This document shows, piece by piece, positions 16,506 to 56,593 of a stretch of DNA of 64,000 bases (its first letter is position 1; the number at the start of each line of letters is the position of its first letter). The DNA is taken from assembly GCA_052034355.1 (NCBI GenBank), contig JBPOIQ010000002.1, positions 1,555-65,554 of the forward strand. The letters are read 5' to 3'. The notes beneath the pieces were generated by a model. The model searched no databases. It was not told the origin of the DNA and was given only the letters and a program-made list of their open reading frames with translations. Both the position numbers and the translations under genes were made by a program. This DNA is from Minisyncoccota bacterium. GTDB taxonomy: Bacteria; Patescibacteriota; Patescibacteriia; SG8-24; DYFX01.

Positions 16506-16520
16506 CAACTCGCTCAGGTC

Positions 16521-16551
16521 GCGCCTTCATCACACGAAGGCGCGATTTTTT
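16521..16551 (+). terminator. intrinsic terminator
   Basis: GCGCCTTC-atcacac-GAAGGCGC followed by GATTTTTTG. A TATACT -10-like box follows immediately. Confidence 0.7.
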
Positions 16552-16565
16552 GTTATACTGAAACC

Positions 16566-16856
16566 ATGAAACATCCCGAGGATCCCGAAGCGCTGCTCTT
16601 CCTGGCTGAAGCTGGGGGTGACGTGCCCGAAGCCGACCTTCACGGTCTGTATCCTGCACAAGCGCTTGAGAGTGTTGAGCGGCTGCTCAATGCCGCGTTC
16701 GTGCGCGGAGACCGCGTCGTGCGCGTGATCCACGGGAAGGGGGAAGGGCGTTTGCGCGAGGCGCTTCATCGCGCCTGCAGGAGCCATCCGCTCGTGGAAC
16801 GCTTTCGGGAAACTTCTGGTGGGGGAGCGACGGTACTTTTACTTGTCGAACGTTGA
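16566..16856 (+). CDS. Smr (small MutS-related) domain protein
   Basis: DLHGLYPAQALESVERLL...VVRVIHGKGEGRLREALHRAC matches the Smr LHG...IHGKG core. Confidence 0.65.
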   Translation: MKHPEDPEALLFLAEAGGDVPEADLHGLYPAQALESVERLLNAAFVRGDRVVRVIHGKGEGRLREALHRACRSHPLVERFRETSGGGATVLLLVER

Positions 16857-16859
16857 TCT

Positions 16860-18197
16860 ATGGATCGTCATTTTCGCAAAGCTTGGGTCGTGACCGCGGA
16901 CATGGGGTACGGACACGAGCGCGCTTCACACGCGCTGACCGATTTGGCGTACGGGGATCCGATCGTTTCAAATAATTATCCCGGTATCCCTGAGCGCGAC
17001 AAAAAGATGTGGCGCGCGACGCGCTTGCTCTACGAAGCTTTCTCGCGATTCAAATCGGTGCCGATCCTGGGCGAGATCGCTTGGAGCGTTTTCGACAACA
17101 TGCAGGAGATCGAACCGTTTTATCCGCGGCGCGACTTGTCGAAGCCGAGCTTGCAGGTGCTCCAGCAGTATTATCTGATTGAAAAGAAAGGGTTGGGATC
17201 CGACCTTATCGCGACTTTGCGCAAGAAGCGCAACCTCCCGCTCGTTTGTACGTTCCCGCTGCCGGCCTTTGCTGCCGACTATTTCGATTATCCCGAAGAT
17301 ATCTATCTCGTGACGACGGACGCCGACATCAATCGCGCCTGGGTCGCGAAAGATCCCAAGCGCAGCCGCGTGAAATATTTCGCTTCGAACGGTCGCGTTG
17401 TTGAACGCTTAAAGCTGTACGGCGTCCCGTCTGACCGCATTTTCCTGACAGGTTTTCCGTTGTCGAAAGACTTGATCGGAGGACCTTCGGCAGAAACCAT
17501 CAGGAAGGATTTGGGCGAGCGGCTGTGCCATCTCGATCCGAACGGGATTTTCCTGGCAAAGTACGAGGAGACGCTACGTTCGACGATCGGCGCCGGAAAT
17601 TGCCGGATGACGCCGACGCATCCGCTCACGCTTACGTTCAGCGTCGGCGGCGCGGGCGCGCAACGCGAACTCGGTCTTGAAATCGCGGAAAGCCTTCGTG
17701 AAAAAATCCGCCGAGGCAAAATCGTCCTCAACCTGGTTGCCGGCACGAAAAAGGACGTCGCGTTGTATTTCAAGAAGAGACTGGTTGAAATCGGTTTGGG
17801 TAGCGACCTCGGAGAAGGGGTGCGCGTGCAGTACTATGCTGACCGCGCTTCGTACTTTCGGAAATTCGATCAACTGTGCCGGCATTCCGATATCTTGTGG
17901 ACCAAGCCGAGCGAGTTGTCGTTTTACACGGGTGTCGGCCTTCCGATCATTGTCGCGCCCCCGATCGGTTCGCAGGAAGTGTATAACGAGCATTGGCTTC
18001 GCACCGTCGGCGGCGGTACGCCGCAGGGGGATCCGAAGTACACCAACGAATGGCTGTTCGACTGGGTCGAATCCGGCGGTTTGGCGCGTATGGCCTGGAA
18101 CGGCTTCATTGAAGCCCCGACGCACGGCGCTTATCGTATCGAAGAAATCATCACGGGCATGGAAGTCGAACTTCCTCAGCTACCGTTGATCATCTAG
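16860..18197 (+). CDS. UgtP/MGDG-synthase-like glycosyltransferase (GT28 superfamily)
   Basis: N-terminal WVVTADMGYGHERASHAL resembles UgtP ILTANYGNGHVQVAKTL. Later YLVTTDADINRAWVAKDPKRSRVKYFASNG and TGFPLSKDL resemble UgtP [25 protein letters not shown] and TGIPIRPQF. Confidence 0.55.
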   Translation: MDRHFRKAWVVTADMGYGHERASHALTDLAYGDPIVSNNYPGIPERDKKMWRATRLLYEAFSRFKSVPILGEIAWSVFDNMQEIEPFYPRRDLSKPSLQVLQQYYLIEKKGLGSDLIATLRKKRNLPLVCTFPLPAFAADYFDYPEDIYLVTTDADINRAWVAKDPKRSRVKYFASNGRVVERLKLYGVPSDRIFLTGFPLSKDLIGGPSAETIRKDLGERLCHLDPNGIFLAKYEETLRSTIGAGNCRMTPTHPLTLTFSVGGAGAQRELGLEIAESLREKIRRGKIVLNLVAGTKKDVALYFKKRLVEIGLGSDLGEGVRVQYYADRASYFRKFDQLCRHSDILWTKPSELSFYTGVGLPIIVAPPIGSQEVYNEHWLRTVGGGTPQGDPKYTNEWLFDWVESGGLARMAWNGFIEAPTHGAYRIEEIITGMEVELPQLPLII

Positions 18198-18198
18198 C

Positions 18199-19185
18199 AT
18201 GCGAGGTTCGCACGGACGCGTGATCGCCATGCTTCTGATCGGTGTCGCTACGACGGCGTCGCTGTTCTTGTGGTATCGGTCTGCGGCGCCTCGAAAGCAG
18301 GCGGTCGCCTATGGCGTCACTTTCTCGACCTCCTATGCGAAGGAGCTTGGGTTGGATTGGAAGCAGGCGTTTATTGCGACACTCGACGATCTTGGCGTCA
18401 GGCATTTCCGCATCCCTGTCTATTGGAACGCCGTTGAAAAGGAGCAAGGTGCGAGAGACTGGTCGGAAGTCGATTGGATGCTTGAAGAGGCCGAGAAACG
18501 CGGTGCAAGCGTGATTCTGGCGGTGGGTCGGAAAACGCCTCGTTGGCCGGAGTGCCACGTGCCGGAGTGGGCGATGGCGCTTTCGCCCGAAAAGCAAAAC
18601 GAACGCGTGCTTGAATTTTTGGCTGCGGAAATCGAGCATTTTAAAGACGCTCCGGCTGTGAAGCGATGGCAAGTCGAAAACGAACCGATGTTTCGGTTCG
18701 GAAAATGCCCGCCTCCCGACCGTGAAATGCTGAAGAGGGAAATCGCGCTCGTACGCGAGCTGGACACGCGGCCTGTCATGGTGACCGACAGCGGCGAGTT
18801 GTCGAGCTGGCTCCGTGTGGGGCCCTTGGCCGACGTGCTCGGCATCAGTATGTATCGACTCGTGTGGAACTCGACCGTGGGAACGTTGTACTGGCCGGTT
18901 GCGCCGACGTTTTATAAAGATCGGATTCGGTTTCTGAAACCCGTGCTGCGTGACGTCGTTGTGAGCGAATTGCAGGCTGAGCCTTGGTTCCACAAGGCGG
19001 TGGCCGAGACGCCGCTTGAAGAGCAGTTCGAGCAGATGAACCCGGTAAAGCTCAGGTCGAACATACGCTTCGCGGCAGCTTCCGGTGCATCAGAGGTGTA
19101 TCTGTGGGGCGTCGAATGGTGGTATTGGGCCTCGCGTCAGGGTCGTCCGGAACTGTGGGAAGCGGCAAAACCTTTTTATCAATAA
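18199..19185 (+). CDS. membrane-anchored glycoside-hydrolase-like protein (TIM-barrel, GH5-like NEP motif)
   Basis: N-terminal TM helix and a conserved RWQVENEP segment typical of GH clan A acid/base. Assignment is tentative. Confidence 0.4.
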   Translation: MRGSHGRVIAMLLIGVATTASLFLWYRSAAPRKQAVAYGVTFSTSYAKELGLDWKQAFIATLDDLGVRHFRIPVYWNAVEKEQGARDWSEVDWMLEEAEKRGASVILAVGRKTPRWPECHVPEWAMALSPEKQNERVLEFLAAEIEHFKDAPAVKRWQVENEPMFRFGKCPPPDREMLKREIALVRELDTRPVMVTDSGELSSWLRVGPLADVLGISMYRLVWNSTVGTLYWPVAPTFYKDRIRFLKPVLRDVVVSELQAEPWFHKAVAETPLEEQFEQMNPVKLRSNIRFAAASGASEVYLWGVEWWYWASRQGRPELWEAAKPFYQ

Positions 19186-19192
19186 CGCCACT

Positions 19193-20332
19193 ATGAAAGA
19201 AGGCGCGACCGTTTCGCGGGTGCTTGAGGGCGTGAATATCCTGCCTGAGCTTTTGGATGCCACGCCAAACGCCTGCCTTTTCATCTTGGAAGACGGGACG
19301 ATCGAATTTGCGAGCCGTGCGTTCGGGGAGCTCTTCGGCATTGAACCCTCGGCGATCGTCGGTCGCACGTTGAAAGATGTCGAACAGGAGTGGTCCGGAA
19401 AATTTGCCGATATTCTGTCGTATCACGAAACGGTGACACATCCGTTCGAAGATCGGGAGACGCGTTTTTTGCGCGATGTCGAAATCTCTTCCCCGGAACG
19501 GGCGTTTCTTGAGATGAAAAGCAGTCCGGTGCGCAAGGAGGGCTCCTATCTTGGCCGTTTGTGGGTCATTCGCGATATTACGAATGAACGGGAAATCACG
19601 CAGCTCAAAATCCGCTACGGCGGCCAGCGCAACGCCGACGAACTGAAGTCGAAGTTCATGACAGTCGTTTCGCATCAGCTGCGCACGCCGATGAACGTCA
19701 TGCGGTGGAATTTGGACGTGCTGCTCTCCGGCGACGCCGGCGAGATTCCGAAAGAGGCTGCCGATCTGCTGCGCGACGCCTACAAGAGCCTGATCGTCAG
19801 CTTGTCGATCATCGACGACATGCTTCTCGCGGTCGATATCGAGCAGCAGGCGTTCCGTCTGGAAAAAGTCTCGGTCGACGTTTCGGCGATTATCGGAAAA
19901 GTCGTACGCGATTTTTCACGCAGCGTCTCGTTGCGCAAACAGACGCTTGTATTCGATCCACCCAAGAACCTGACGCCGCTCTTCGTCGATCCGGCACGTA
20001 TAGAAAAGGTGTTTATTCGATTGCTCGATAATGCCGTCAAATATACGCCGGACGGCGGACGGATCGCGATCGAAATCCATCCGACGAAAGACTCGCTGGA
20101 CATCGAGTTCCACGATTCGGGTATCGGTATGTCGGATGCCGACCGTGAACGGTTGTTCGAGCGGTTTTATCGCTCCAAACGCGCTATTGAAATGAATCCG
20201 AATGCTTCCGGTCTTGGGCTCTTCATCGCCAAGTTTATCGTCGCGGCTCATGAAGGGCAGCTCCGGTACCGTCCGGCAGACGGCGGCGGTTCCGTTTTTA
20301 CGGTCTCTTTGCCGCGACGCGCTTCTTCGTGA
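19193..20332 (+). CDS. PAS-domain sensor histidine kinase
   Basis: ATG 19193 directly after the previous stop. H-box VSHQLRTPMN, N/G boxes (RLLDNAVKYT, DSGIGM), GLGLFIAKFIVAAHEGQL. The N-terminal ~150 aa are PAS-like. Confidence 0.85.
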   Translation: MKEGATVSRVLEGVNILPELLDATPNACLFILEDGTIEFASRAFGELFGIEPSAIVGRTLKDVEQEWSGKFADILSYHETVTHPFEDRETRFLRDVEISSPERAFLEMKSSPVRKEGSYLGRLWVIRDITNEREITQLKIRYGGQRNADELKSKFMTVVSHQLRTPMNVMRWNLDVLLSGDAGEIPKEAADLLRDAYKSLIVSLSIIDDMLLAVDIEQQAFRLEKVSVDVSAIIGKVVRDFSRSVSLRKQTLVFDPPKNLTPLFVDPARIEKVFIRLLDNAVKYTPDGGRIAIEIHPTKDSLDIEFHDSGIGMSDADRERLFERFYRSKRAIEMNPNASGLGLFIAKFIVAAHEGQLRYRPADGGGSVFTVSLPRRASS

Positions 20333-20392
20333 TGCCGCTTGTTTCGGGATCGTGTTTCGGGTATGATGCCCGCATAAGTCTTGCGTTTTCCC

Positions 20393-20767
20393 ATGGCTAA
20401 AACCGTATTGATCGTCGAGGATGAACCGAGCATGCAGCGAGCGCTCAAAAGCAAGCTCGAGCATGGCGGTTACGACGTGAAAGCCGCTGCCGACGGCGAG
20501 GAAGCAGTGACGATTTTGAAGACGGTGGTGCCGGAGCTGGTGCTGCTCGATCTCATCATGCCGAAAATCGACGGCATTTCCGTCCTGCGTCAGATGAAGG
20601 CGGATGATCGGCTTCGTTCCGTGCCCGTCATCATTCTCACGAACCTCAGCTCAGGCGATAAGGTCGCCGAAGCGATGGCACTCGGCACATTCGACTTCCT
20701 CGTGAAGGCGAACTACTCCCTGGACGACGTCCTTAGAAAAGTCACGGAACGGATCGGAGCACCGTAA
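20393..20767 (+). CDS. single-domain response regulator (CheY-like REC)
   Basis: MAKTVLIVEDEPSMQ..., phospho-acceptor LVLLDLIMPKIDG, T/K positions (ILTNLS, FLVKA). No output domain. Confidence 0.8.
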   Translation: MAKTVLIVEDEPSMQRALKSKLEHGGYDVKAAADGEEAVTILKTVVPELVLLDLIMPKIDGISVLRQMKADDRLRSVPVIILTNLSSGDKVAEAMALGTFDFLVKANYSLDDVLRKVTERIGAP

Positions 20768-20799
20768 GCCCTTGACCGGGCGCGCGGGAAGGAGGACCT

Positions 20800-21930
20800 G
20801 TGCCGATACCACATCACATTTTGAAAGAACCCAAGATCGATGAAGCTGTCGATCTTCTTTTGCGCGACGCGGCGACCTCCGACGTTACGGAGATTTTCTT
20901 GTTGCCGACGGCGAAGGATGCGGTCGTGCGCGTGCGACGCGACGGCATGGTGCACGAATGGTTTCATCAATCGAAAGAATCGCATGCGCGATTCGTTCGT
21001 CATTTGAAAACGCTGGCGCGATTGCGCGACGACGTCGAGTATACCTGCCAGGAACACGCTTTGCGCCGCGTTGTGGGCAACATTGAAATCGAGGGCCAGC
21101 TCGCGGTCGTTCCTGTGCTTGAGGGGGAGAAGGCCGTTCTGCGGCTTCATTCGCAGCGTCCGGGATTGGCCGAACTCGGCCTCTCGACCGCACAGCGTGC
21201 CCAGATCGAACGTTGTTTGAAAAAACCTTCTGGACTGCTCGTGCTTGCCGGACCGCGTCGCTCTGGCCGTACGACGACGCTCTATGCGCTTTTGGAGAGC
21301 GCGCATGCTTTGGGGAGGCAGGTTTCGCTCATCGAGTCCGTCTCGGAAGCCGAACTGCACGGCATCGATCAGGAGACGACGGATCCGGTTTCCGGAAGAA
21401 CGACGTCGGCGCTCTTGCGCGCGGCAATTGCGCGCGGGGCGGACGTACTTGGTCTTGGGGCTGTGCGCGACGAATCGACCGCCGCACTTGCCGTCTCCGC
21501 CGCCGAGCATCGTCTCGTGATTGTCGTTGTCGAAGGTGGGACACTCACGAAGGCTTTGAACAGGCTGTTGGAATTGCGGATCGAACCTCGCGCTTTGGCG
21601 CGCGTCTTGTCGGGAGTGCTTTTGCAGCGCCTTGCGCGGCGCGTTTGTGCTGAGTGTCGCAAACACGTCACGCTCTCCGTCGAGGAGGCTTCGCGCGCTT
21701 GGCCGCGAGCGCTGGTGCAGCGCGTGTTCGGAAAGAATCGCTCGCAGACATTCGTGCGCGGGGCGAAGTGCGCCGCTTGCCGATACACCGGCGATCGAGG
21801 GCAAGTCGGCTTGTTTGAATGGAGGAATTTGCTCGTGCCGGAACGACATCCGGCGACGTTGGTCGACGACGGAGTCAGGAAAGCGCTTTCCGGAGAGATC
21901 GCTCCGGAGGAAATTTTGCGCCTGTCGTAA
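20800..21930 (+). CDS. GspE/PilB-family secretion-ATPase homologue with degenerate catalytic motifs
   Basis: Walker A position reads GPRRSGRTTTLYA (canonical GPTGSGKTTT; Lys replaced by Arg). Asp-box and His-box positions are diverged. The Walker B region GAVRDES and the C-terminal tetracysteine CAEC...CAACRYTGDRGQVGLFE are retained. Confidence 0.7.
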   Translation: MPIPHHILKEPKIDEAVDLLLRDAATSDVTEIFLLPTAKDAVVRVRRDGMVHEWFHQSKESHARFVRHLKTLARLRDDVEYTCQEHALRRVVGNIEIEGQLAVVPVLEGEKAVLRLHSQRPGLAELGLSTAQRAQIERCLKKPSGLLVLAGPRRSGRTTTLYALLESAHALGRQVSLIESVSEAELHGIDQETTDPVSGRTTSALLRAAIARGADVLGLGAVRDESTAALAVSAAEHRLVIVVVEGGTLTKALNRLLELRIEPRALARVLSGVLLQRLARRVCAECRKHVTLSVEEASRAWPRALVQRVFGKNRSQTFVRGAKCAACRYTGDRGQVGLFEWRNLLVPERHPATLVDDGVRKALSGEIAPEEILRLS

Positions 21931-22198
21931 GATCGTTTTCGGCGACCGAAGAATGGCGACAGGGTGCGTTCTTGACGGGCGCGGAAGGGTGTGCTATACA
22001 GGCGTTGATCTGGGCGCCTGTCCCAGGGGTTCCGCGCCACGCCTCCTCACGTGGTGGCAGGATGTACCGACGCGTCGAGACTCGAGGCCGTCGGTTGTGA
22101 GCCGACACGCCGCCATGAATACCGGATTCACGGCGGTTTTTTATTTGCTATACTGTGCCCATCTTCTGAGTATTATCCACACCGGCTGGCCGTACCGT

Positions 22199-22777
22199 AT
22201 GTCCAAAGAAGTCGTCCTCGACATTGAAACGCAAAACAGCTTTGCCGACGTCGGCGGAGCGAACCATGACAAGCTCAAAATTTCGCTGATTGGCGTCTAT
22301 TATTACGAAACCGACGAATACGTCAGTTATCTCGAGCATGAATTGCCGAATCTTTGGCCGCGCCTCGAACACGCCGAACGGATCATCGGGTACAACACCA
22401 AAGGATTCGACTATTTGGTGATGAACGCCTACTACGCGGGCGACGTTTCGGTATTTCCAAGCCTCGACATTCTTGAAGAAATCGCCAAGGCACTCGGTTT
22501 CCGCGTGAAACTTGACGATGTCGCTTCGGCGACGCTCGGGTACGGCAAGTCCGGACACGGTCTTCAAGCGATTGAATTTTTCCGCAAAGGCGAACTCGAC
22601 AAGCTGCGCGACTACTGCTTGATGGACGTCAAAGTCACCAAGGAAGTCTACGAGTACGGCAAGGCGCACGGCGAGGTGTTTTACTTCGACCGCGCCGGCG
22701 TGAAGCGCGCCGTCAAGGTAAATCTCGGCATGCCCAGCGCGAAACCGAATCCGATCAACCTGACGATGCCGTTTTGA
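22199..22777 (+). CDS. DEDDy-type 3'-5' exonuclease (DnaQ/RNase-D-like fold)
   Basis: ATG 22199 (internal to ORF-track 21632..22777). Exo I VLDIETQ, Exo II GYNTKGFDYLV, Exo III YCLMDVKVTKEVY. Confidence 0.55.
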   Translation: MSKEVVLDIETQNSFADVGGANHDKLKISLIGVYYYETDEYVSYLEHELPNLWPRLEHAERIIGYNTKGFDYLVMNAYYAGDVSVFPSLDILEEIAKALGFRVKLDDVASATLGYGKSGHGLQAIEFFRKGELDKLRDYCLMDVKVTKEVYEYGKAHGEVFYFDRAGVKRAVKVNLGMPSAKPNPINLTMPF

Positions 22778-31503: not shown

Positions 31504-34338
31504 ATGAGTAAAAACAAGTTTGAGAAATCGATAAGTTCGGACGAGCATATCCAGTCTGACCTGCAAGATGCTGGGATAAGCCGTCCAGACGAATGGAAGG
31601 AGGCGACGGATGTAGAAATAAAAGGGATGGAATTTGCGGGTGATGAGCTTTTTGAGGAGAGACGGGCAAATATTGCAGATATGATGGCACGTATCGTTGA
31701 GGGTGATCTTCAGTCAGGCGAAATCATCCGCGCTTCTCCTAATTTCCAGCGCGAGATTGCGACACAGTTCATCGAGAATTATCGGGGGTATGAAGTCGCC
31801 AAACATCTCGAAGTGTTCCCATGCCTCGACCACGGACAGCTAGCCCAGCGGCTCATTGCTGCCGGTCAAGGCGGCGTTGTCGCACGGTATCTCGACAAGT
31901 TCCAAGTCTCCGACCAGTCCATTGCCTGGCAGCTCATTGATGCTGGTTTTAGTAGGGAAGTCACTCAGCATCTCGACAAGTTCGACAACCTCAATCTTGC
32001 GCAGCTCGTCCTGCGGCTCATCGCTGAAAACAGTGCTGAGGATGATGATCACCGCCTAGACCTGCACCTCGACAATTTCCCGGGCCTCGACCGCCTGCAG
32101 CTAGCCCAGATGCTCATTGTTGACAGAAACGGCTGGTACGTTGTCCGACATCTCGACGAATTCCCAAGCCTCGACCACGGACAGCTCGCCCAGCAGCTCT
32201 TTGCTGCCGGAGAAGGTGCTGTTGTCGCCGGATACCTCGACAAGTTCCAAGGCCTCGGTCGTGAAAAGCTTGTCGAGCTCTTCCTGCTCGACTTGCCAGA
32301 AGGAATGCGTACGTCCGTCGCACCGTATTTCGGAGACTGGTTCGATGGTACGCGCCCAACCTTCGCGAATTTTTTCGCACAACTGAAAAAAATGGACGCT
32401 CTTGTTACAGAGCGTCCGGAGCTCGTGAAGGACCTCCTCGACCCCGCCATCAAAGCCCAGGGTATCGGAGCTTTTCGCGTCCTTGAATCCATCACTACAC
32501 TAGCCCAAGCTGGAGCCGTCGCTTCGCGCGAAGACAGCGCCATCCTCGCCCATATCGTAACCACCAAAGGTGTGCGTGCCAATGATGGCCTTCTTTTCCT
32601 CGTGGGTGGTCTTCGTGGTTCCGAAGGCGGCGGGTTTGTAGACGAAGAAGGGCAAGACATCGGTTGGCAGGCAGATCAGGCCTTTGCGGCGTCAAAAGAA
32701 TCGAGCAAACCTTTTTTCAAGACGCCTCTTTCTCAGAATCCCCACCTCGGCTCTTTCCTCGATTCCGGCATGCCCTTGATTGACACACTGTATAAAAAGC
32801 ATGAGGCAGTCATGACAGACGCCTCGCTCAATCCTACCGAAAGGAATCAAGCCCTGTCCGCGCTTCAAGAGCACATTCGCGTGTTGATCGAGCGAGTACG
32901 TGATGGCAAGATCGAAGAGGCTGATCTCCGCGACGACTCTTTCGTTGGCATCGTCTACCACGTCTTCCCGCCCGCCACGACGCTCGACCGCGGACAATAC
33001 CGGAACTTGCTTTCGTGTCGCCAAGACCGCAGTGCTGATCTGCCGGAAGCCTGGGGCTCGCTCAACGAGGCCTCCGAAGCGCGTCTTGAAGTCGCTCGCG
33101 GCGCCTGGGTTCTTAGGGAAGGTGAGCGAACGGACACGAACGCCTGGCGGTCATTGTCCGAAGCCATTCGCGACGTGAACACGAAGCCAATTGATCAGTG
33201 GAATGATGCTGCCGCGGCTCTCTCAGGCAAACGCCTCGTAGAGGCGCTTGGGAATCAGAAGGCTATGAACAAGGATCGCACCGACCTCCTCAAGGCGATC
33301 TACGCCTTCCACCGCTCAGCCAACGGCGCGACGCTCACGACCGACACATCCTCGCGGGAAGGGCTTCTCGAGATCAAGGAATACGCCGGCGATCGCATGA
33401 AGGATACCATTGACCTCCTTCTCAAGGCCTATGCCAACGCAGACCCGTCCGGTTACGAAAAAACTGTAAAAGAAGCGACGACGGTTTCCATTCAGGAGAA
33501 AGCCAAGAAGGGTATCTTCAAGCAGTTGCTGAACATCCTGGGTACGCTCTCTATGGACGCTGAAGAGACCAACATTCGCTTCAAAGCGGTCCTCGACCGC
33601 TATGGGATCCATGTGGAGGGCGACGCGCTTTCGGAGGTTCTCAAGGTTGTCGAAGGCATTCCCAACAATGACGACACAGCGCAAAGGAAAGCCGTCGAAC
33701 AATTCCTGAAAGGTCTTCTCGATGGCGCAGCGATGAGCCGCAACGCCGGCAAACTCTCCGTCGATATCACGAACCGTCTCATCGGCGACGACTACGCATC
33801 CATGCAGGAGGAGATGGGCCGGTATGAGTTTCAAGAGGACGCCGAGGGTAGCAAAGGCGACATCTTCCACTTAGAAGTCTCGAAGAAACGCGCCCACGCC
33901 GTCGCTGGCCTCAACATGGGTGTCTGCGTGGCTGTTGATGAGCAACTTTGGCAGAAGGAAACCTTTTCGAACGTCATCCTGTGGGATGCCGAAGGCACTG
34001 CTCGTGGTGGTATGCATTTCGAGATCGTCGAGGACGACAACAAGACTTATTTATCCCTGCCGGGCATCAACCCGTCGGGTTCCGCTATTGGCCAAGCTGG
34101 AGCCGAGAAGCTCTTCGATGGCATGCTTTCGTATGCCAAGGAAGCCGCACGCCGCATCGGAGCGGAGGCCGTCCTGATTCCGACTGCTTCGGTCATCCAC
34201 TCGAATCGTGCCGAGATGCAGTCCGTGCTTGCCTCGAAAGGGTACAAGACCCTCTCGCTTAAAAAAGGATCGCATGAGTTCTCATACGCGCCGCATCACT
34301 ACTCATGGAACGATGCATTCGTCGTTGAATTGGAGTGA
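31504..34338 (+). CDS. large hypothetical protein (944 aa) with N-proximal tandem ~28-aa repeats; low-GC gene
   Basis: Single long ORF preceded by a ~240-nt AT-richer gap. Six repeats of consensus HLDxFPxLDxxQLAQxLIxAGxGxVV. C-terminal ~150 aa have a GNAT-like pattern (LSLPGINPSGSAIGQAGAEKLFDGMLSYAKEAARRIGAEAVLI), which is only an inference. Confidence 0.6.
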   Translation: MSKNKFEKSISSDEHIQSDLQDAGISRPDEWKEATDVEIKGMEFAGDELFEERRANIADMMARIVEGDLQSGEIIRASPNFQREIATQFIENYRGYEVAKHLEVFPCLDHGQLAQRLIAAGQGGVVARYLDKFQVSDQSIAWQLIDAGFSREVTQHLDKFDNLNLAQLVLRLIAENSAEDDDHRLDLHLDNFPGLDRLQLAQMLIVDRNGWYVVRHLDEFPSLDHGQLAQQLFAAGEGAVVAGYLDKFQGLGREKLVELFLLDLPEGMRTSVAPYFGDWFDGTRPTFANFFAQLKKMDALVTERPELVKDLLDPAIKAQGIGAFRVLESITTLAQAGAVASREDSAILAHIVTTKGVRANDGLLFLVGGLRGSEGGGFVDEEGQDIGWQADQAFAASKESSKPFFKTPLSQNPHLGSFLDSGMPLIDTLYKKHEAVMTDASLNPTERNQALSALQEHIRVLIERVRDGKIEEADLRDDSFVGIVYHVFPPATTLDRGQYRNLLSCRQDRSADLPEAWGSLNEASEARLEVARGAWVLREGERTDTNAWRSLSEAIRDVNTKPIDQWNDAAAALSGKRLVEALGNQKAMNKDRTDLLKAIYAFHRSANGATLTTDTSSREGLLEIKEYAGDRMKDTIDLLLKAYANADPSGYEKTVKEATTVSIQEKAKKGIFKQLLNILGTLSMDAEETNIRFKAVLDRYGIHVEGDALSEVLKVVEGIPNNDDTAQRKAVEQFLKGLLDGAAMSRNAGKLSVDITNRLIGDDYASMQEEMGRYEFQEDAEGSKGDIFHLEVSKKRAHAVAGLNMGVCVAVDEQLWQKETFSNVILWDAEGTARGGMHFEIVEDDNKTYLSLPGINPSGSAIGQAGAEKLFDGMLSYAKEAARRIGAEAVLIPTASVIHSNRAEMQSVLASKGYKTLSLKKGSHEFSYAPHHYSWNDAFVVELE
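31801..32295 (+). repeat. degenerate tandem repeat array (~84-105 nt units) inside the 944-aa gene
   Basis: Visible at DNA level (e.g. cacggacagctagcccagcggctcattgctgccgg... / cacggacagctcgcccagcagctctttgctgccgg...) and as protein repeats. Confidence 0.7.
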
Positions 34339-45958: not shown

Positions 45959-47845
45959 ATGCCTAAAATTCTCGGTATCGACCTCGGTACGACAAACTCC
46001 TGCATGGCCGTCATCGAAGGCGGTCAGCCGAAGGTGCTCGAAAACAAAGAAGGCGCGCGCACGACGCCGTCGATGCTGGCGATCTCCAAAGCGGGGGAGC
46101 GCCTCGTTGGACTTCTCGCCAAGCGCCAGGCCGTCGTCAACCCGACCAACACCATCTACTCCGTGAAACGTTTGATCGGACGCCGTTGGGAAGATCCGGA
46201 AGTGCAGCGCGACGCCAAGCTCTTCCCGTTCAAACTGACGAAGTCGGGCGAAGGCGCGAAGATCGTCATGGGCGATAAGGAATACTCGCCGCAAGAAATC
46301 TCGGCGATGATTCTTCAAAAACTCAAAGCGGACGCCGAAGAAAAAATCGGCGAGAAGATCGAGGAAGCCGTCATCACCGTGCCGGCCTACTTCGACGACG
46401 CCCAGCGCCAAGCCACGAAAGACGCGGGCGAAATCGCCGGCCTCAAAGTGCGCCGCATCATCAACGAACCGACGGCTGCCGCACTCGCCTACGGTTTCGA
46501 CAAGAAGAAAGATGAAAAGATCGTCGTCTACGACCTGGGTGGCGGCACGTTCGACGTCTCGGTACTCGAAGTTTCCGCCGACACCGTTGAAGTGAAAGCC
46601 ACGAATGGCGACACGCATCTCGGCGGCGACGACTTCGATCAGCGCCTCATCACCTGGATCGTCGAAGAATTCAAGAAAGCCGAAGGCGTCGATCTCTCCA
46701 AGGATCCGCTCGCTTTGCAGCGCATCAAGGAGGCCGCCGAAAAAGCCAAGATCGAACTCTCGACCGCGGCCACGTCCGAAATCAACCAGCCGTTCATCGC
46801 CTCCGACCCGGCCACCGGCCCCAAGCATCTCGTCATGACGCTCTCGCGCTCCAAGCTCGAAGAGCTCGTCGGCGACCTCGTCGAAAAGACGCTCGAACCG
46901 ACGAAGAAAGCCTTGGCCGACGCCAAACTTTCCGTCTCCGACATCAACGAGATCGTGATGGTTGGTGGTATGACGCGCATGCCGCTCGTCCTCGCCACCG
47001 TCGAAAAATTCTTCGGCAAGAAGCCGAACGTTTCGGTGAACCCGGACGAAGTCGTCGCGATCGGCGCGGCAGTCCAAGGTGGCGTCTTCCAAGGCGACGT
47101 CAAAGACGTCTTGCTTCTCGACGTCACTCCGCTGTCGCTCGGTCTTGAAACGATGGGTGGTGTCTCGACAAAACTGATCGAGCGCAACACCACGATCCCG
47201 ACGGCCAAAACGCAGGTCTTCTCGACCGCGGCCGACAACCAGCCGGGCGTCGAAATCCACGTCCTCCAGGGCGAGCGCGAAATGGCGGCCGACAACAAGT
47301 CACTCGGACGCTTCATGCTCGACGGCATCCCGCCGGCACCGCGCGGTGTGCCGCAAATCGAAGTCACTTTCGATATCGACGCCAACGGTATCCTGAACGT
47401 GAAGGCGAAGGATAAAGCTTCGGGCAAGGAACAGAAAATCACCATCACCGCCTCGACCGGCCTCTCCAAGGAAGAAGTCGAGCGCATGAAGAAGGACGCC
47501 GAGATTCACGCTTCGGAGGACAAAGCCAAGCGCGAGATGGCCGACCTCAAGAACAACGCCGAGACGATGGTGCACACCACCGAAAAGATGCTCAAGGACA
47601 TGGGCGAGAAGATGAAACCGGAAGACAAGAAAGCACTCGAAGAAAAACTCTCCGCGCTCAAAGCGGTAAAGGACGGCGCCGACCAGGAAGCAATCAAGAA
47701 AGCCGCGAATGAACTCACCGACCTCGCGCAAAAAATCGGTGGAGAAATGTACAAAGAAAATCCTCCAGCGGGCGAGGCTTCGAACGCCGACAAGAAAGAA
47801 GGCGACGGACCGATCGAAGGCGAAGTCGTCGATAAGAAGGAATAA
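45959..47845 (+). CDS. dnaK: molecular chaperone DnaK (Hsp70)
   Basis: [35 protein letters not shown], full-length 628 aa with EEVD-less acidic tail. Confidence 0.95.
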
Positions 47846-49758: not shown

Positions 49759-52700
49759 ATGCGCATCGCCACGACCGACCGCAAGCTTTTCGTTTCGCTC
49801 GTTGCTTTTGTTGCGTTGGCTTTCGGTGCGGGCGCCGCTCACGCGCAATTCGCCGCGCCGACCTGCACGCCGCCGAACTGCAGTCCGGCTGTCATTCAGA
49901 ATATTCCGATTGCAAGCGGAGCGCAGAACGCGAGCATTAATATTACGGGCGACGCCAAAGTCGGCGCCACGTTTCAAGCGGGTGGAAGTACGCCTGTCTT
50001 GAACGCGTCTGGTCAAAATCTTTATTACGGAAACGTTGCGGGCACCTCTTCGGCTGGCAGTCTTTTGTTGCTCCAGTTCGGAGCCGCGGATCGTTTCCGT
50101 ATCGGCCTTACCGGTGACGTTACTTCGCAGGGTGTGTACTCTAGCGCGGCCGGAAGCGTCGGCGTGCCTTCGTATACGTTCAACGGTGATTCGAACACGG
50201 GTCTCTATTCGCTCGGCGCGGATGCGATTGGTGTTACGACTGGCGGCGTCAACCGTCTCATGATTAACAATGGCGGTGTATCGATTGGTACCGGTGTTTT
50301 GTATGCACCGGCCGGCACGGTGAGTGCGCCTGGCCTCTCCTTTAACGGTGATCCTGATACCGGCCTGTACAGGACTGCAGACAACGTCATGAACGTGGCA
50401 ACGAACGGTGTGCGCACGATGGTGTTCTCCGCCACGAACAGCGTTGTTGTTCCGGGCATGCTTCATGTGCAAGGAGGCTTGGATGCGAACCTTGGCGGCA
50501 ATGGAAGCGGCATCACCAACATCAATGCGAATAATATCACCTCCGGCACGTTGAATGATGCGCGCTTGTCTTCGAACGTCGCGTTGTTGAACCGCACGGG
50601 TCAGACCTTCACGGGTACAAATACGTTCAGCAGTCTGACAACGTTCGGTGCAAGCGCTGGACCGGTTATCTCGATCAACAACTCGGTTGGCGGCGTTGAA
50701 ATCGGCGGTATCAGCGAGAATGCTTTCAACTTTTATACGCAGGGTTCCATTTATAACCAGATCGACAGCAACAACAACTCGACCAACTCGTACTACTGGC
50801 TCAACGGAGCCGGTGCGAACGTCATGACGTTGGATGAAAGCGGCAACTTTGATGTCGAGGGTATGGTGACCTTGGGAAGCCCTGACATGCGGCTTTTGAA
50901 CCCAGGAGAGAATCTGATTTATGGAAACGTCGATCAATTCGCTGCTGGAAATATTCTGCTTTTGCAAGCGGAGTCCGTAGATCGTTTCAGTGTTGATGCT
51001 GATGGTAACGTTGTCGCAGCCGGCACGATAACGTCGTCCGGGCAAGCGGTCTGTCTCCAGAACGGCGCCAACTGCCCGCAGAGCGTCGGTGGATTTGGTA
51101 CTCCGAACGCACTTGCAAAATTCGATGCTTCAGGTTACGCGCTGACAAGTTCGTCAATTACGGATGACGGAGCCACGATCGGTGTCGGCGGCGCACCGAG
51201 CGCTAGCTATGCCATGACGGTGTACGGTGTCATCTATGCCAACGCGCTCTCGACGCCGAGAATTGATGCATATGCGCCTGGTGCTGGCGCTACGGCCATT
51301 TATGGTACAGCGGATGGTGCCGGATCGACGGGTATTTATGGTTCAGGTGCTTCAACCGGTATCTACGGAAGCTCGGCGGCAACGGGTGTCTATGGCCGCT
51401 CCACTGGAGCCGGCGCTGGTGTCTACGGTAGTTCGAGTTCGGGTTATGGTGGTGATTTCTCCTCGTTGCGTGTTGCGGGCGTTACCTTGTTTCAAGGCGG
51501 TGTGACGCTTGCGAACAGCACGACGCTGCAGCTGGGTCTTTCCGCGGTTGACGTCGGCGGCACGAACGGTCGCATGTATTACAACAGCACCACGAACAAG
51601 TTCCGCTGCTATGAAAACGGTTCGTGGCAGGACTGCCGCGACGGCGGCATGGGCGGAAGCGGTACGGTGAACACGATTCCGAAATTCACGGCCGCTTCAA
51701 CGATCGGAAACTCGACGTTGACCGACGATGGCGTAACTGTTACGGCTGCGCAAAACTTTGCGGTCAACGGCAATACAACGATCGGTAACGCGGCAGCGGA
51801 CACGTTGACGCTGACGGGAACTGCAGTTGCGACGCCGAACAACCTCAACATCGACGCGAACACACTGTATGTCGACGCGCTCAACAACCGCGTCGGCGTG
51901 GGCACTAACGCTCCAGGTACGACCTTGGCAGTGGCCGGAACGCTGGCCGTGACCGGGAACACGACGCTTGGCGATGCGGCGGCTGACCGCACGACGATCA
52001 ATGGCGAACTGGTTCTTGGAAGCCAGGCGACAAACCCTGCGGGCGTGAACGGTATGATGTTCTACAACTCGCTCAACAACAAGTTCCGCTGCTACGAAAA
52101 CGGAACTTGGATTAACTGCGGTGGAGAGGAGGATACGCTCGATACGGTTGCGGTGCGCGGCGCGATTGCCTACAGAAGCCTCGCGATTGATACGAATGGT
52201 GGCGGAACGTTCCTTGGAGGCGAGGCTCTGACGATCGAAGGAACCGGAACAGGCATCTATTCGAGCGCCACCGACTACGGCGTGCGCGGTAACACGACCG
52301 GCGTGAACGGTATCGGTGTCTGGGGTGGTGGCCAATTGTACGGAGGTTACTTCGGAGCGACGTCTGCTGCGGGGTATGCGGTTCGTGCGGATGCCTTCTC
52401 GGCGAACAACATTGCTGTCTATGCGCAAGGTCGCCTTCAAGTCACGCAGACCGCAGGTTTCGGCGGTGCTGCGCCTTCCGCCGCGTATGGTATCCAAACG
52501 CAGGGTAACTACGGCATTGTGAGCTACGGGCAAGGTGCCAATAACGCGAACTACGGCGGTTACCTCTATGGTAGCGGCGCCACAACGGCCAACTACGGTG
52601 TGGCGGCCTACGGTATCGGCGGCACGACGGCCTATGGTGTCCTCGCGTACGCACAAGGCGGCACGAACAACTACGCGTTGTACGCGACACTTGGTTCCAT

Positions 52701-53286
52701 CCGTACCACTTGCGCCACGAACGACTCTGAAACGGACAGCATCGTTTGCGAAGACATCGCCGAAGTCTACGAGACGGGCGAGCATACCGAACCCGGCGAC
52801 GTGATCGTGTGGAGGCCGGACGTCGACAACAAAGTCTACAAGTCGCGAAAACCGTACGAAGACGGCATCGCCGGCATCTACTCGACTTCCCCGGGCGTGC
52901 TCATGGGTAACCAGGATGTCAACGGCAAGTACGGCGTCGAATTAGGTAACGCGAACACGGCTGAGACGATCAAGAAACTCGGCTCGACGCATGCGGCGGT
53001 CGCTTTGGCCGGGCGCGTACCCGTCAAAGTCACGCTCGAAGGCGGCGCGATCAAACCCGGAGATCTTCTCACCAGCTCTTCGAAAGCCGGTTATGCGATG
53101 AAGGCAAGCAAAACAGGTCGCGTCGTCTGCATGGCGATGGAGTCGTTCGATGAGTATTCGAAGGGCGACAAGGTCATGTGCTATGTCAATCCACACCAGT
53201 GGGTTGATCCGCGCGAGTACGACGGCCTCAAGTCAGACTTGGAGAGCATGAAGGCCGATATCGAAGCGCTGAAAGCGAAAAAGTAA
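49759..53286 (+). CDS. giant secreted repeat protein (1175 aa) with phage-tail-fibre-type repeats and Gly/Thr/Asn-rich beta-rich body
   Basis: Signal peptide MRIATTDRKLFVSLVAFVALAFGAGAAHA. Repeats ...GVPSYTFNGDSNTGLYSLGADAIGVTTGGVNRLMI... / ...APGLSFNGDPDTGLYRTADNVMNVATNGVRTMVF.... Long G-Y-G-rich repeats (YGGYLYGSGATTANYGVAAYGIGGTTAYG). C-terminal coiled-coil-like tail. The minus-strand ORFs 49750..51045 and 51697..52785 are antisense to it. Confidence 0.75.
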   Translation: MRIATTDRKLFVSLVAFVALAFGAGAAHAQFAAPTCTPPNCSPAVIQNIPIASGAQNASINITGDAKVGATFQAGGSTPVLNASGQNLYYGNVAGTSSAGSLLLLQFGAADRFRIGLTGDVTSQGVYSSAAGSVGVPSYTFNGDSNTGLYSLGADAIGVTTGGVNRLMINNGGVSIGTGVLYAPAGTVSAPGLSFNGDPDTGLYRTADNVMNVATNGVRTMVFSATNSVVVPGMLHVQGGLDANLGGNGSGITNINANNITSGTLNDARLSSNVALLNRTGQTFTGTNTFSSLTTFGASAGPVISINNSVGGVEIGGISENAFNFYTQGSIYNQIDSNNNSTNSYYWLNGAGANVMTLDESGNFDVEGMVTLGSPDMRLLNPGENLIYGNVDQFAAGNILLLQAESVDRFSVDADGNVVAAGTITSSGQAVCLQNGANCPQSVGGFGTPNALAKFDASGYALTSSSITDDGATIGVGGAPSASYAMTVYGVIYANALSTPRIDAYAPGAGATAIYGTADGAGSTGIYGSGASTGIYGSSAATGVYGRSTGAGAGVYGSSSSGYGGDFSSLRVAGVTLFQGGVTLANSTTLQLGLSAVDVGGTNGRMYYNSTTNKFRCYENGSWQDCRDGGMGGSGTVNTIPKFTAASTIGNSTLTDDGVTVTAAQNFAVNGNTTIGNAAADTLTLTGTAVATPNNLNIDANTLYVDALNNRVGVGTNAPGTTLAVAGTLAVTGNTTLGDAAADRTTINGELVLGSQATNPAGVNGMMFYNSLNNKFRCYENGTWINCGGEEDTLDTVAVRGAIAYRSLAIDTNGGGTFLGGEALTIEGTGTGIYSSATDYGVRGNTTGVNGIGVWGGGQLYGGYFGATSAAGYAVRADAFSANNIAVYAQGRLQVTQTAGFGGAAPSAAYGIQTQGNYGIVSYGQGANNANYGGYLYGSGATTANYGVAAYGIGGTTAYGVLAYAQGGTNNYALYATLGSIRTTCATNDSETDSIVCEDIAEVYETGEHTEPGDVIVWRPDVDNKVYKSRKPYEDGIAGIYSTSPGVLMGNQDVNGKYGVELGNANTAETIKKLGSTHAAVALAGRVPVKVTLEGGAIKPGDLLTSSSKAGYAMKASKTGRVVCMAMESFDEYSKGDKVMCYVNPHQWVDPREYDGLKSDLESMKADIEALKAKK

Positions 53287-56080: not shown

Positions 56081-56593
56081 TTGGAAGGTTCAGTGACGCA
56101 CTGCTCGCAGTATAGGTATGCTATACTAAAGAAGTCAACGCCTATGCCGCCAGGAGCGCCTACGCCCGGTTTTGAAGAGGTTCCGGCGATTCCGGAGCAA
56201 CGCAACGAGGTTCCCGAAACCGGGGCCTCATTTGAGTCTTCTCAACCCGCTGTTGAACAACCTCCGGAAACCGTACCGGTCGTGCAAGATGTGCCGGTAT
56301 CGGCACCGGTTGCGCCGGCTCCGAAAGATCCATCCGTGCGCGCCGTCGAGCATATTCTTGAAGAAGACTTGGGCGACGCATTTCACAAGATGACGCCGGA
56401 GTTGCAAATCAAGTTCCGAAAAGAGGGCGAGCGCATCACGTCGATCATTGTGACGATGGTGCGCAATGCCAAAGTGAACGCGCGCGTCGTTTTGAAACTG
56501 ATCGCGACGTGGCTCAAGATGATTCCCGGCGTCAATCATTTTTTTCTGGCGCAAGAAGCCAAGATCAAGACCGATAAGATCTTGAAGCTATGA
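56081..56593 (+). CDS. hypothetical protein with Pro/Glu/Val-rich N-terminus; translationally coupled to the downstream ATPase
   Basis: Stop overlaps the start of the 56590 gene (ATGA). The likely start is the internal Met (MPPGAPTPGF...). Confidence 0.4.
   Translation: MEGSVTHCSQYRYAILKKSTPMPPGAPTPGFEEVPAIPEQRNEVPETGASFESSQPAVEQPPETVPVVQDVPVSAPVAPAPKDPSVRAVEHILEEDLGDAFHKMTPELQIKFRKEGERITSIIVTMVRNAKVNARVVLKLIATWLKMIPGVNHFFLAQEAKIKTDKILKL

Follow-up and report, generated by a model that had tools for sequence, protein, structure and literature searches.

A catalytically degenerate PilB-like protein as candidate output partner of a REC-only response regulator in a reduced pilus locus of Patescibacteria

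The locus studied here lies in a 64-kb stretch of DNA from a Minisyncoccota bacterium (contig JBPOIQ010000002.1; the whole stretch is referred to below as the window), in which four plus-strand genes (19193-22777) encode a PAS histidine kinase, a REC-only response regulator, a 376-residue protein with the core of a PilB/GspE-type ATPase, and a DEDDy-type exonuclease. We call the PilB/GspE-core protein (20800-21930) psi-PilB and the REC-only regulator gene that precedes it RR1. An initial annotation of this DNA had listed these four genes, and we found all of them on the plus strand at the coordinates it gave. The window genome has a GC content of 58%, and its relatives are labelled 'Patescibacteria group bacterium' in the databases.

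The kinase (19193-20332, plus strand) is a cytoplasmic protein of 379 residues with PAS/PAS_4, HisKA and HATPase_c domains by Pfam and an H-box that, by inspection, reads SHQLRTP. It is 92% identical to its closest relative, with a ratio of nonsynonymous to synonymous substitution rates (dN/dS) of 0.05-0.07. RR1 (20393-20767, plus strand) specifies a CheY-like receiver of 124 residues (Response_reg, 89 bits); its open reading frame opens at 20381, but orthologues begin at MAKTV, which gives a start at 20393. The phospho-acceptor D53, together with D10, T83 and K105, is present by inspection, and the kinase and RR1 apparently make up a functional pair.

The third gene encodes the N2D and C-terminal domain (CTD) core of a PilB/GspE-type ATPase, as indicated by Pfam, alignment, AlphaFold2 and Foldseek, and starts with GTG (20800-21930, plus strand). 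Residues 13-342 match Pfam T2SSE (PF00437) with 154.3 bits against a cut-off of 24.9. The AlphaFold2 model is confident (predicted local distance difference test, pLDDT, 90.4; predicted template-modelling score, pTM, 0.84), and its best Foldseek matches are the PilF/PilB cores 5oiu, 5tsh and 5zfr, with template-modelling (TM) scores of 0.84-0.86. The N1D/MshEN domain (T2SSE_N, PF05157), which the canonical matches carry, was not matched in psi-PilB, which begins at N2D. Moreover, the protein scores far below the equivalog cut-offs of NCBIfam for GspE (166.5 against 630), PilB (154.7 against 676) and ComGA (119 against 300).

We compared the catalytic motifs of psi-PilB and 11 orthologues (52-100% identity; nine of them full length, at ~375 residues) with those of 108 other PilB-like proteins. 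Residues 14-341 align by HMMER to Thermus PilF, Geobacter PilB and Vibrio GspE with a gapless P-loop, in which GPRRSGRT of psi-PilB stands opposite GPTGSGKS of Thermus PilF. The degenerate Walker A motif GPRRSGRTTT (residues 151-160; 21250-21279, plus strand) thus has Arg for Lys157, a position that is Lys in 101 of the 108 other proteins and Leu, Arg, Val or Cys (five, four, two and one, respectively) in the 12 orthologues. At the two loop positions before Ser-Gly, most of the 12 carry Arg-Arg in place of Thr-Gly (the Gly is found in 105/108). In the Asp box, where other family members read (A/I/V)EDPVEY, psi-PilB has IESVSEA (residues 178-184; 21331-21351, plus strand); the Pro, present in 107/108, is lost from all 12 orthologues, and the Asp, present in 102/108, from 10 of them. 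The Walker B motif DVLGLGAVRD (residues 215-224; 21442-21471, plus strand) has Ala at the position of the catalytic Glu221, which is Glu in 104/108 and Ala (eight), Ser (two), Thr (one) or Gly (one) among the orthologues. Finally, the His box EHRLVIVVVEG (residues 236-246; 21505-21537, plus strand) has Arg238 for its first His (His in 100/108; Arg in 12/12) and Glu245 for its second (His in 106/108; Glu in 11/12). What the protein does keep are the N2D arginines of the R-x-R-x-D-G motif, Thr158, R223-D224 and the tetracysteine zinc motif CAEC...CAAC (C283, C286, C324 and C327; 21646-21780, plus strand), whose cysteines are invariant alignment columns; ~19 residues are deleted after the zinc motif relative to the extension ATPases PilB, PilF and GspE.

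Several statements of the initial annotation can be read against this alignment. It had reported the exchange of the Walker A Lys for Arg, diverged Asp and His boxes and a C-terminal tetracysteine, all of which stand. It had also described GAVRDES as a retained Walker B-like element, which does not stand, as this segment is GEIRD with the catalytic Glu changed to Ala. An indel that shifts the Lys by one position could have left the P-loop intact; since neither the HMMER nor the MAFFT alignment has a gap in the P-loop, against PilF or against the 108 other PilB-like proteins, this objection fails and the candidate shift was rejected.

Together, the motif table predicts that psi-PilB is catalytically dead and that the loss is a property of the family. 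It seems very improbable that the protein is still an NTPase or a nucleotide-binding switch that works through non-canonical residues, although psi-PilB still has the G-P-x-x-S-G-x-T-T-T backbone of the P-loop as well as Thr158 and R223-D224, Arg occupies the Lys position in four of the 12 orthologues including that of the window, GSGRTTT occurs in six full-length PilB-like proteins elsewhere, and a basal syntenic orthologue (P0136, below) keeps Walker A, Asp box and Walker B. Against these points, the Lys position holds Leu, Val or Cys in eight of the 12 orthologues, the catalytic Glu, both His-box histidines and the Asp-box Pro are gone, and two bulky arginines replace the canonical Thr-Gly of the P-loop. 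The family has also fixed new charged residues in or close to what was the ATP site (R47, R153, R154, R238 and E245); speculatively, these might lock the interface between N2D and CTD or form a binding site for a new ligand. As psi-PilB fails every catalytic criterion as well as the equivalog cut-offs, it should not be filed as a PilB/GspE ATPase, even though its sequence and fold place it in the T2SSE superfamily; database labels such as 'GspE/PilB ATPase' or 'ATPase, T2SS/T4P/T4SS family' overstate what proteins of this type can do. Our full-text searches of the literature turned up no account of a naturally occurring PilB/GspE pseudo-ATPase.

The six full-length proteins just mentioned (P0018, P0088, P0102, P0114, P0116 and P0118; 556-614 residues) have Arg at the Walker A Lys position, as in GPAGSGRTTT. 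N1D/MshEN is on record for all of them save P0088, four also lack the first His of the His box, and all six stem from short contigs of unknown origin. They suggest that the distribution of partly degenerate PilB paralogues extends beyond the clade of this study.

The three genes for the kinase, RR1 and the PilB-like protein are contiguous, and at the same chromosomal place, in 13 of 13 distinct lineages of high-GC Patescibacteria (L001-L007, L011, L013, L014 and L112-L114), over which the identity of the PilB-like protein to psi-PilB falls as low as 31%. A further short contig (L115) has RR1, RR2 and the PilB-like gene, without the kinase. RR1 is 75-96% identical clade-wide while the PilB-like protein drops to 31%, and the regulators of L112-L115 are still 75-84% identical to that of L003. 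The family sample is small and drawn entirely from metagenome-assembled genomes: five members occur among GTDB species representatives, and only one more was found in metagenomes. Five third-party metagenome assemblies with the Patescibacterial locus (L011-L014 and L020) are titled 'uncultured Gammaproteobacteria bacterium'; this label, like the title 'Bdellovibrionales' of L025 (below), is probably wrong.

In the close family, the gene order upstream is TPR, PBP1A, phosphodiesterase, Smr, DUF6938, a glycoside hydrolase-like (GH-like) protein, kinase, RR1 and psi-PilB, and psi-PilB is followed by a cassette of three genes (593, 202 and 479 residues), the exonuclease, a small minus-strand gene, MgsA, TSP3, FtsI and MurF. 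This order with the cassette is seen in six distinct relatives (L001/L010, L002, L003-L005, L006, L013 and L014). The first cassette gene overlaps the psi-PilB stop codon by 4 nt. Two of the cassette proteins start with prepilin-type signals (MRHPRG|ITLVETIV and MRRPA|FTLLEALV), the third has a similar N-terminus but lacks the Glu at +5, and the 202-residue protein of L002 scores above the N_methyl and TIGR02532 cut-offs. More distant loci have other genes at the same place, as described below, and every slot occupant that we could identify is a pilus component: the three pilin-like genes, a PilM fusion or a pilin. The comparison indicates that the kinase, RR1 and the PilB-like core are the conserved unit of the locus, and that gene turnover is concentrated in the slot between this core and the exonuclease.

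In the window the 3.8-kb cassette is missing, and a junction of 268 nt without coding sequence (21931-22198, plus strand) takes its place; none of the three cassette genes was found anywhere in the 64 kb. An independent assembly from the Joint Genome Institute (JGI; L008) is 100% identical to the window over 11.4 kb and shows the same junction, which is therefore no assembly artefact. L007/L012 and L011 also lack the cassette, as does L112. The junctions of the window, L007/L012 and L011 differ in length (268, 130 and 56 nt), and these three are not sisters on the psi-PilB tree. Because an outgroup, L025, has a homologous cassette and the lineages without one are not sisters, we conclude that the cassette was lost rather than gained, so that psi-PilB survived at least three separate deletions ending at or next to its stop codon. 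No remnant of the cassette can be claimed in the 41 nt after the psi-PilB stop, where alignments to the 3' ends of the 479-residue gene scored 10-14 (random windows: mean 13.6, 95th percentile 18).

The history of the locus can be followed outside the close family. An exhaustive profile search of 1.84 billion representative proteins returned, for the close family, only two cluster representatives (P0009 and P0011), along with four more distant single-core proteins. All four lie at the same chromosomal place, in the order kinase(s), RR1, RR2, PilB-like gene, variable slot and exonuclease, flanked by PBP1A, DUF6938 and GH-like genes upstream and MgsA, TSP3 and FtsI downstream; RR2 is absent from the psi-PilB family. 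P0136 (L114; 31% identity to the window protein) has Walker A, Asp box and Walker B intact but has lost both His, and the next gene specifies a 330-residue membrane protein without a family match. P0135 (L113; 39%) has Arg for the Walker A Lys, has also lost both His, and is followed by a 688-residue PilM fusion (PilM_2, 130 bits). In P0138 (L115; 32%) the Lys is Thr and the Walker B Glu is Asp, and the next gene encodes a pilin (GFNVIELLIV). P0123 (L112; 45%) has Leu for Lys, Asp for the Walker B Glu and an intact Asp box, and the exonuclease follows directly. On a neighbour-joining tree without support values, these syntenic proteins and the psi-PilB family make up one clade beside the canonical Patescibacterial PilBs, to which psi-PilB is nearest. 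Along this tree the motif states run from KDEEQR through RDEERE / TEDDPH and LDEDRR to x-x-x-[ASTG]-R-E (11/12) in the 12 orthologues, and the His box appears to have been lost first, followed by the Walker A Lys, the Walker B Glu and finally the Asp box.

The top matches of the same profile search were proteins of ~1000 residues (P0121-P0134 and P0137) that contain two complete PilB cores in tandem. A fusion of psi-PilB to an active PilB was considered for these and rejected: in the halves that we sampled both cores were canonical, and the high scores are the sum of two domains. Four of the tandem proteins were inspected closely and have a canonical Walker A in each core. In P0131 (1047 residues) the Lys of the first core is Thr and the second core is canonical; this protein may combine a dead core and an active one in a single chain.

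A still more distant relative of the locus points to its origin. L025 has a GC content of 35% and, despite its Bdellovibrionales title, Patescibacteria-like gene content; its genes run kinase, REC-only regulator, canonical PilB, PilC, three cassette homologues, PilM, PilN-like and PilO-like. The regulator is 41% identical to RR1, PilC matches T2SSF with 198 bits and PilM scores 147 bits. The PilB of L025 (581 residues) has the canonical motifs GPTGSGKTTT, VEDPVEY, GEIRD and GHLVLSTLHTN. The homologues of the 593-, 202- and 479-residue cassette genes come in the same order, at 30%, 29% and 38% identity (E = 1e-87 for the last). L025 thus carries a pilus set (PilC, PilM/N/O and pilin-like genes), without a prepilin peptidase. 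In L092 the order is kinase, regulator, regulator, PilB, PilC and pilins. L025 and L092 are two unrelated Patescibacteria-like pilus clusters in which a kinase and a REC-only regulator precede a canonical PilB, with pilin-like genes beyond, in the same order as in the psi-PilB locus; they differ from the window, which keeps only kinase, regulator and dead core, in having a full-length canonical PilB and PilC (and, in L025, PilM/N/O). From these arrangements we conclude that the module of the window derives, by reduction, from a pilus gene cluster with a linked two-component system, a descent that the gene orders clearly support. By the same comparison the window would represent the most reduced state of the locus, with PilC and PilMNO gone, as in the whole clade, and the minor-pilin-like trio gone as well.

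Given so much loss, psi-PilB could itself be a decaying relic of the dismantled cluster, of little or no function and simply not deleted so far. Its rate of evolution, the highest in the neighbourhood, would fit this explanation, as would the progressive loss of its motifs, the freedom with which the Walker A Lys position drifts, and the disappearance of N1D, PilC, PilMNO, RR2 and the pilin cassette. Several lines of evidence nevertheless make it improbable. The open reading frame is intact and full length in all 13 distinct lineages. Pairwise dN/dS values for psi-PilB (five pairs) are 0.10-0.19, comparable with PBP1A of the same locus, though rough because dS (~1-2) is near saturation. The family alignment has 82 invariant columns, among them the four cysteines and the newly fixed R47, R153/R154, R238 and E245. 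If the loss of the cassette had released psi-PilB from constraint, relaxed selection would be expected in the window lineage, and we saw none: a three-taxon split of dN assigns 0.057 to the window branch and 0.078 to its sister, so the window branch is not accelerated, and the window protein, which departs from the near-invariant columns in one singleton, is one of the copies of the family that deviate least. Its survival of the repeated deletions next to its stop codon argues in the same direction. Finally, psi-PilB has a strong Shine-Dalgarno site, GGAAGGAGG (20787-20795, plus strand), which ends 4 nt before the GTG start; both the GGAAGGAGG site and the GTG are common to the window and L002, whose psi-PilB is 52% identical. 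The data therefore support maintenance by purifying selection, and psi-PilB is not a pseudogene. The suggestion of the initial annotation that a preserved paralogue of this kind is a pseudo-ATPase agrees with the lost motifs, the intact reading frames, the dN/dS values, the ribosome-binding site and the fold (pLDDT 90, TM 0.86).

In two public records, L002 and L112, the gene call for psi-PilB lacks its 5' part (342 and 330 residues, respectively). In both, the frame extends upstream to a GTG start that gives a full protein of ~375 residues (L002 9902-11029; L112 7869-8993), and the extended start in L002 is preceded by the same ribosome-binding site as in the window.

The fourth gene of the window set encodes a DEDDy-type 3'-5' exonuclease of the PolB-exo/RNase H-like kind (192 residues; 22199-22777, plus strand). 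Both DNA_pol_B_exo2 and RNase_H_2 are above cut-off (PF10108, 29.6 against 24; PF13482, 28.4 against 22), and inspection finds the motifs DIET, GFD and YCLMD (Y-x3-D), so the DEDDy assignment seems reasonable; a structure search found no solved homologue. The initial annotation had linked this enzyme to psi-PilB and to DNA processing. A joint role in a DNA-uptake or DNA-processing pathway might be read from the adjacency of the two genes in the window, L007, L011 and L112, and from the position of the exonuclease as the first gene past the variable slot in every case, yet we regard it as extremely unlikely. The two genes adjoin in the window because the ~3.8-kb cassette is missing; pilin-like genes separate them in six relatives, the PilM fusion does so in L113 and the membrane protein gene in L114. 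An extended -10 element, TGCTATACT (22146-22154, plus strand), which is conserved in 7/7 loci compared, gives the exonuclease a promoter-like site of its own, and a terminator-like hairpin stands between psi-PilB and this site in both the window and L002. The exonuclease also groups the genomes differently from psi-PilB, with the window copy 96% identical to that of L003 and 77% to that of L001. As the whole backbone of exonuclease, MgsA, TSP3, FtsI and MurF is collinear, adjacency carries no specific signal, and the exonuclease is best regarded as a backbone gene and not a member of the module. The synteny of the four genes, which the initial annotation had named as a check, splits in two: the kinase, RR1 and PilB-like trio is conserved, and the exonuclease is separated from it in the six relatives, L113 and L114.

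The junction between psi-PilB and the exonuclease contains two further elements. One is a candidate small RNA gene (21972-22143, with the ~138-nt RNA at 22006-22143), with a promoter-like sequence made up of TTGACG, a 17-nt spacer and TGCTATACA (21972-22000), a predicted multi-stem fold in which one hairpin has a CCUCCU (anti-Shine-Dalgarno-like) loop, and a terminator-like hairpin with a T run at its 3' end (22108-22143). The element is 79% identical to L002 14864-15053, though synonymous sites are near saturation between these genomes; the L002 copy has a clean insertion of a 17-nt hairpin, and the pairing of the outer stem is kept through four changed pairs. Its distribution is patchy, with no copy in L001, L003, L006, L007, L011 or L112-L114, and neither Rfam (at the gathering threshold and with E allowed up to 10) nor two scans of viral contigs gave a match. 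The other element is a perfect DnaA-box 9-mer, TTATCCACA (22173-22181), located just downstream of the -10 element and 18 nt upstream of the exonuclease ATG. It is invariant in 7/7 loci compared, and TTATCCACA may serve regulation by DnaA or may be a part of the 5' untranslated region that has been conserved by coincidence.

On the other side of the module, an intrinsic-terminator-like hairpin with a 13-bp stem followed by a T run (16516-16548, plus strand) precedes a tightly spaced run of six consecutive plus-strand genes (gaps of 1-60 nt) from Smr to psi-PilB, and is therefore likely to be the upstream boundary of their transcription unit. The run begins with Smr (16566-16856), followed by a DUF6938 protein (Pfam) that is glycosyltransferase-like by a weak PDB match (16860-18197) and a membrane-anchored TIM-barrel protein that is GH-like, again by a weak PDB match (18199-19185), before the kinase, RR1 and psi-PilB. 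The first three genes are spaced by gaps of 1-7 nt immediately 5' of the kinase and may be co-transcribed with the signalling module. The DUF6938 protein is 96-97% identical among the four nearest relatives and 91% to L002.

These neighbours bear on the main rival to a role in pilus biology, namely that psi-PilB is indeed the output partner of a two-component system but has been taken over for a function outside pili, with the envelope or glycan functions of the DUF6938 and GH-like proteins, or the cell-wall genes PBP1A, FtsI and MurF, as candidate targets. We give such a takeover this standing because the 64-kb window holds no pilus component and the sole candidate PilB from the same sample is foreign (see below), although we consider it unlikely overall. 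The tight spacing after the terminator would suit it, and so would the contiguity of DUF6938, GH-like gene and kinase across the whole clade, in all lineages with enough upstream sequence. The weak PDB matches, of DUF6938 to a processive diacylglycerol glucosyltransferase and of the GH-like protein to endoglucanases, are of the appropriate kind, and psi-PilB is kept in the window, L007, L011 and L112 with no pilus gene nearby. Those same matches are weak, however (E = 0.002 and 7e-5), and compact Patescibacterial genomes crowd unrelated genes together. Moreover, the identifiable occupants of the slot after the PilB-like gene are always pilus components, the unmatched occupant in L114 aside.

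On balance, we favour the interpretation that psi-PilB is a non-catalytic derivative of PilB that serves as the output partner of RR1, kept by purifying selection within a three-gene signalling module. In such a module the cytoplasmic PAS kinase would phosphorylate RR1. Because RR1 has no output domain, it would act through psi-PilB, binding it and signalling through it. psi-PilB in turn would be a nucleotide-independent adaptor or gate on pilus-type machinery, and could either occupy the docking site on PilC/PilM or partner an active PilB encoded elsewhere. The pairing of the CheY-like regulator with psi-PilB, already proposed in the initial annotation, is supported by gene neighbourhood, in the 13 lineages and in the two pilus clusters with a canonical PilB.

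A number of observations weigh against this interpretation. The contact between RR1 and psi-PilB is deduced from gene neighbourhood only. We found no PilC, PilM, PilD, PilT or prepilin signal anywhere in the 64-kb window; a search for PilM/N/O, a prepilin peptidase and pilins with class III signals was equally negative over the same 64 kb. Nor could a canonical PilB be tied to any genome of the clade. P0017 was considered as the canonical PilB of the same genome, since it comes from the JGI sample of L001, and was rejected: its contig has a GC content of 42% (vs 57%) and a tetranucleotide correlation of -0.27, and therefore belongs to another organism. At least three non-sister lineages of the close family, as well as L112, keep psi-PilB without the pilin cassette, and its role is therefore not tied to those particular pilins. 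In every pair compared, psi-PilB is the fastest-evolving gene of the neighbourhood (in one example it is 78% identical, vs 92% for the kinase and 96% for the regulator). The saturation of dS also makes the dN/dS values approximate, and the trees are all distance trees without support values.

A stronger version of the favoured interpretation, that psi-PilB acts as a signalling device and is the first natural 'dead' protein of the PilB/GspE motor family to do so, is one that we put forward only tentatively and consider rather doubtful at present. Under it, the phosphorylated REC-only regulator would bind the nucleotide-free PilB core, with R47, R153, R154, R238 and E245 filling the former ATP site, and the complex would gate or prime the pilus platform or co-assemble with an active PilB.

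Comparison with characterized systems helps to place both versions. With the extension ATPases PilB, PilF and GspE (PF00437; 5oiu, 5it5, 5tsh and 1p9r), psi-PilB shares the N2D and CTD fold, the R-x-R-x-D-G arginines, the tetracysteine zinc motif and the C-terminal helix; it differs from them in the lack of N1D/MshEN, of the catalytic residues and of an adjoining PilC gene, and in the deletion after the zinc motif. PilB and PilT of the Saccharibacterium TM7x, unlike psi-PilB, are reported to have conserved Walker boxes (PMC11623550). Possession of several PilB homologues is common among bacteria, and the function of the extra copies is an open point (PMC11656802).

The locus also has parallels among systems in which a receiver or a motor relative regulates a pilus. 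To our knowledge, a route from a receiver-only regulator to a pilus motor is established in few cases. DrdR, a REC-only regulator of Xanthomonas, modulates the activity of PilB and PilT, both of which it binds (PMC13507683), and PilG/PilH of the Pil-Chp system likewise couple an output-less receiver to a PilB-type protein (PMC11656802). In both cases the regulator, an orphan or part of a chemosensory pathway, acts on an active ATPase, whereas at the psi-PilB locus the presumed target is dead and encoded immediately downstream, and the interaction is one that we infer. In Vibrio cholerae, PilT with dead Walker boxes still sustains function by way of PilU, and in Acinetobacter baylyi a priming role in assembly, next to PilB, has been proposed for TfpB (PMC11656802). 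These cases resemble our proposal in that a second protein of the PilB/PilT family serves as primer or adaptor, or a hydrolysis-dead hexamer supports an active paralogue, but TfpB is an active ATPase and the dead PilT proteins are laboratory mutants, whereas psi-PilB is a naturally fixed, long-evolving dead form. In archaea, FlaH partners the archaellum ATPase FlaI. FimX, with degenerate GGDEF and EAL domains, is a degenerate-enzyme cofactor of PilB (PMC11656802). Both are impaired relatives of enzymes that regulate a filament-assembly motor, as we propose for psi-PilB, although they belong to different families, none of them with the PilB/GspE fold.

Elsewhere in the window, the genes 3' of the exonuclease are those for tRNA-Pro, MgsA/RarA, a TSP3-repeat protein, FtsI and MurF. 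A minus-strand open reading frame at 45896-47260 matches the Pfam family 'NAD-GH' (PF10712) with 415 bits, but it lies antisense inside dnaK (45959-47845; HSP70, 848 bits) and is therefore almost certainly spurious. The window also encodes a VirD4/TraG-like coupling ATPase (56590-59043), downstream of a 1175-residue open reading frame (49759-53286) that has no Pfam match, and a second large open reading frame without a Pfam match (944 residues) lies at 31504-34338. The two large products and the coupling ATPase may be surface or transfer proteins specific to Patescibacteria.

Type IV pili are central to the episymbiotic lifestyle of Patescibacteria. That a PilB homologue should have become a pseudo-enzyme is unsurprising in itself; what makes this a clean and testable case is that the gene is tightly linked to a two-component system, has orthologues in a graded series and has repeatedly lost its neighbours. 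At this locus a PilB core predicted to be hydrolysis-dead is naturally fixed and genetically linked with a kinase and a REC-only regulator. If our interpretation is correct, the syntenic orthologues record the stepwise conversion of a hexameric motor into a pseudoenzyme, from intact Walker motifs without a His box, through Lys to Arg or Thr and Glu to Asp, to the loss of all four motifs. Such a series would be well suited to asking which properties of the motor (hexamer formation, docking to the platform or partner binding) outlast catalysis, in a locus that appears to capture the piecewise dismantling of a pilus cluster with its signalling core retained.

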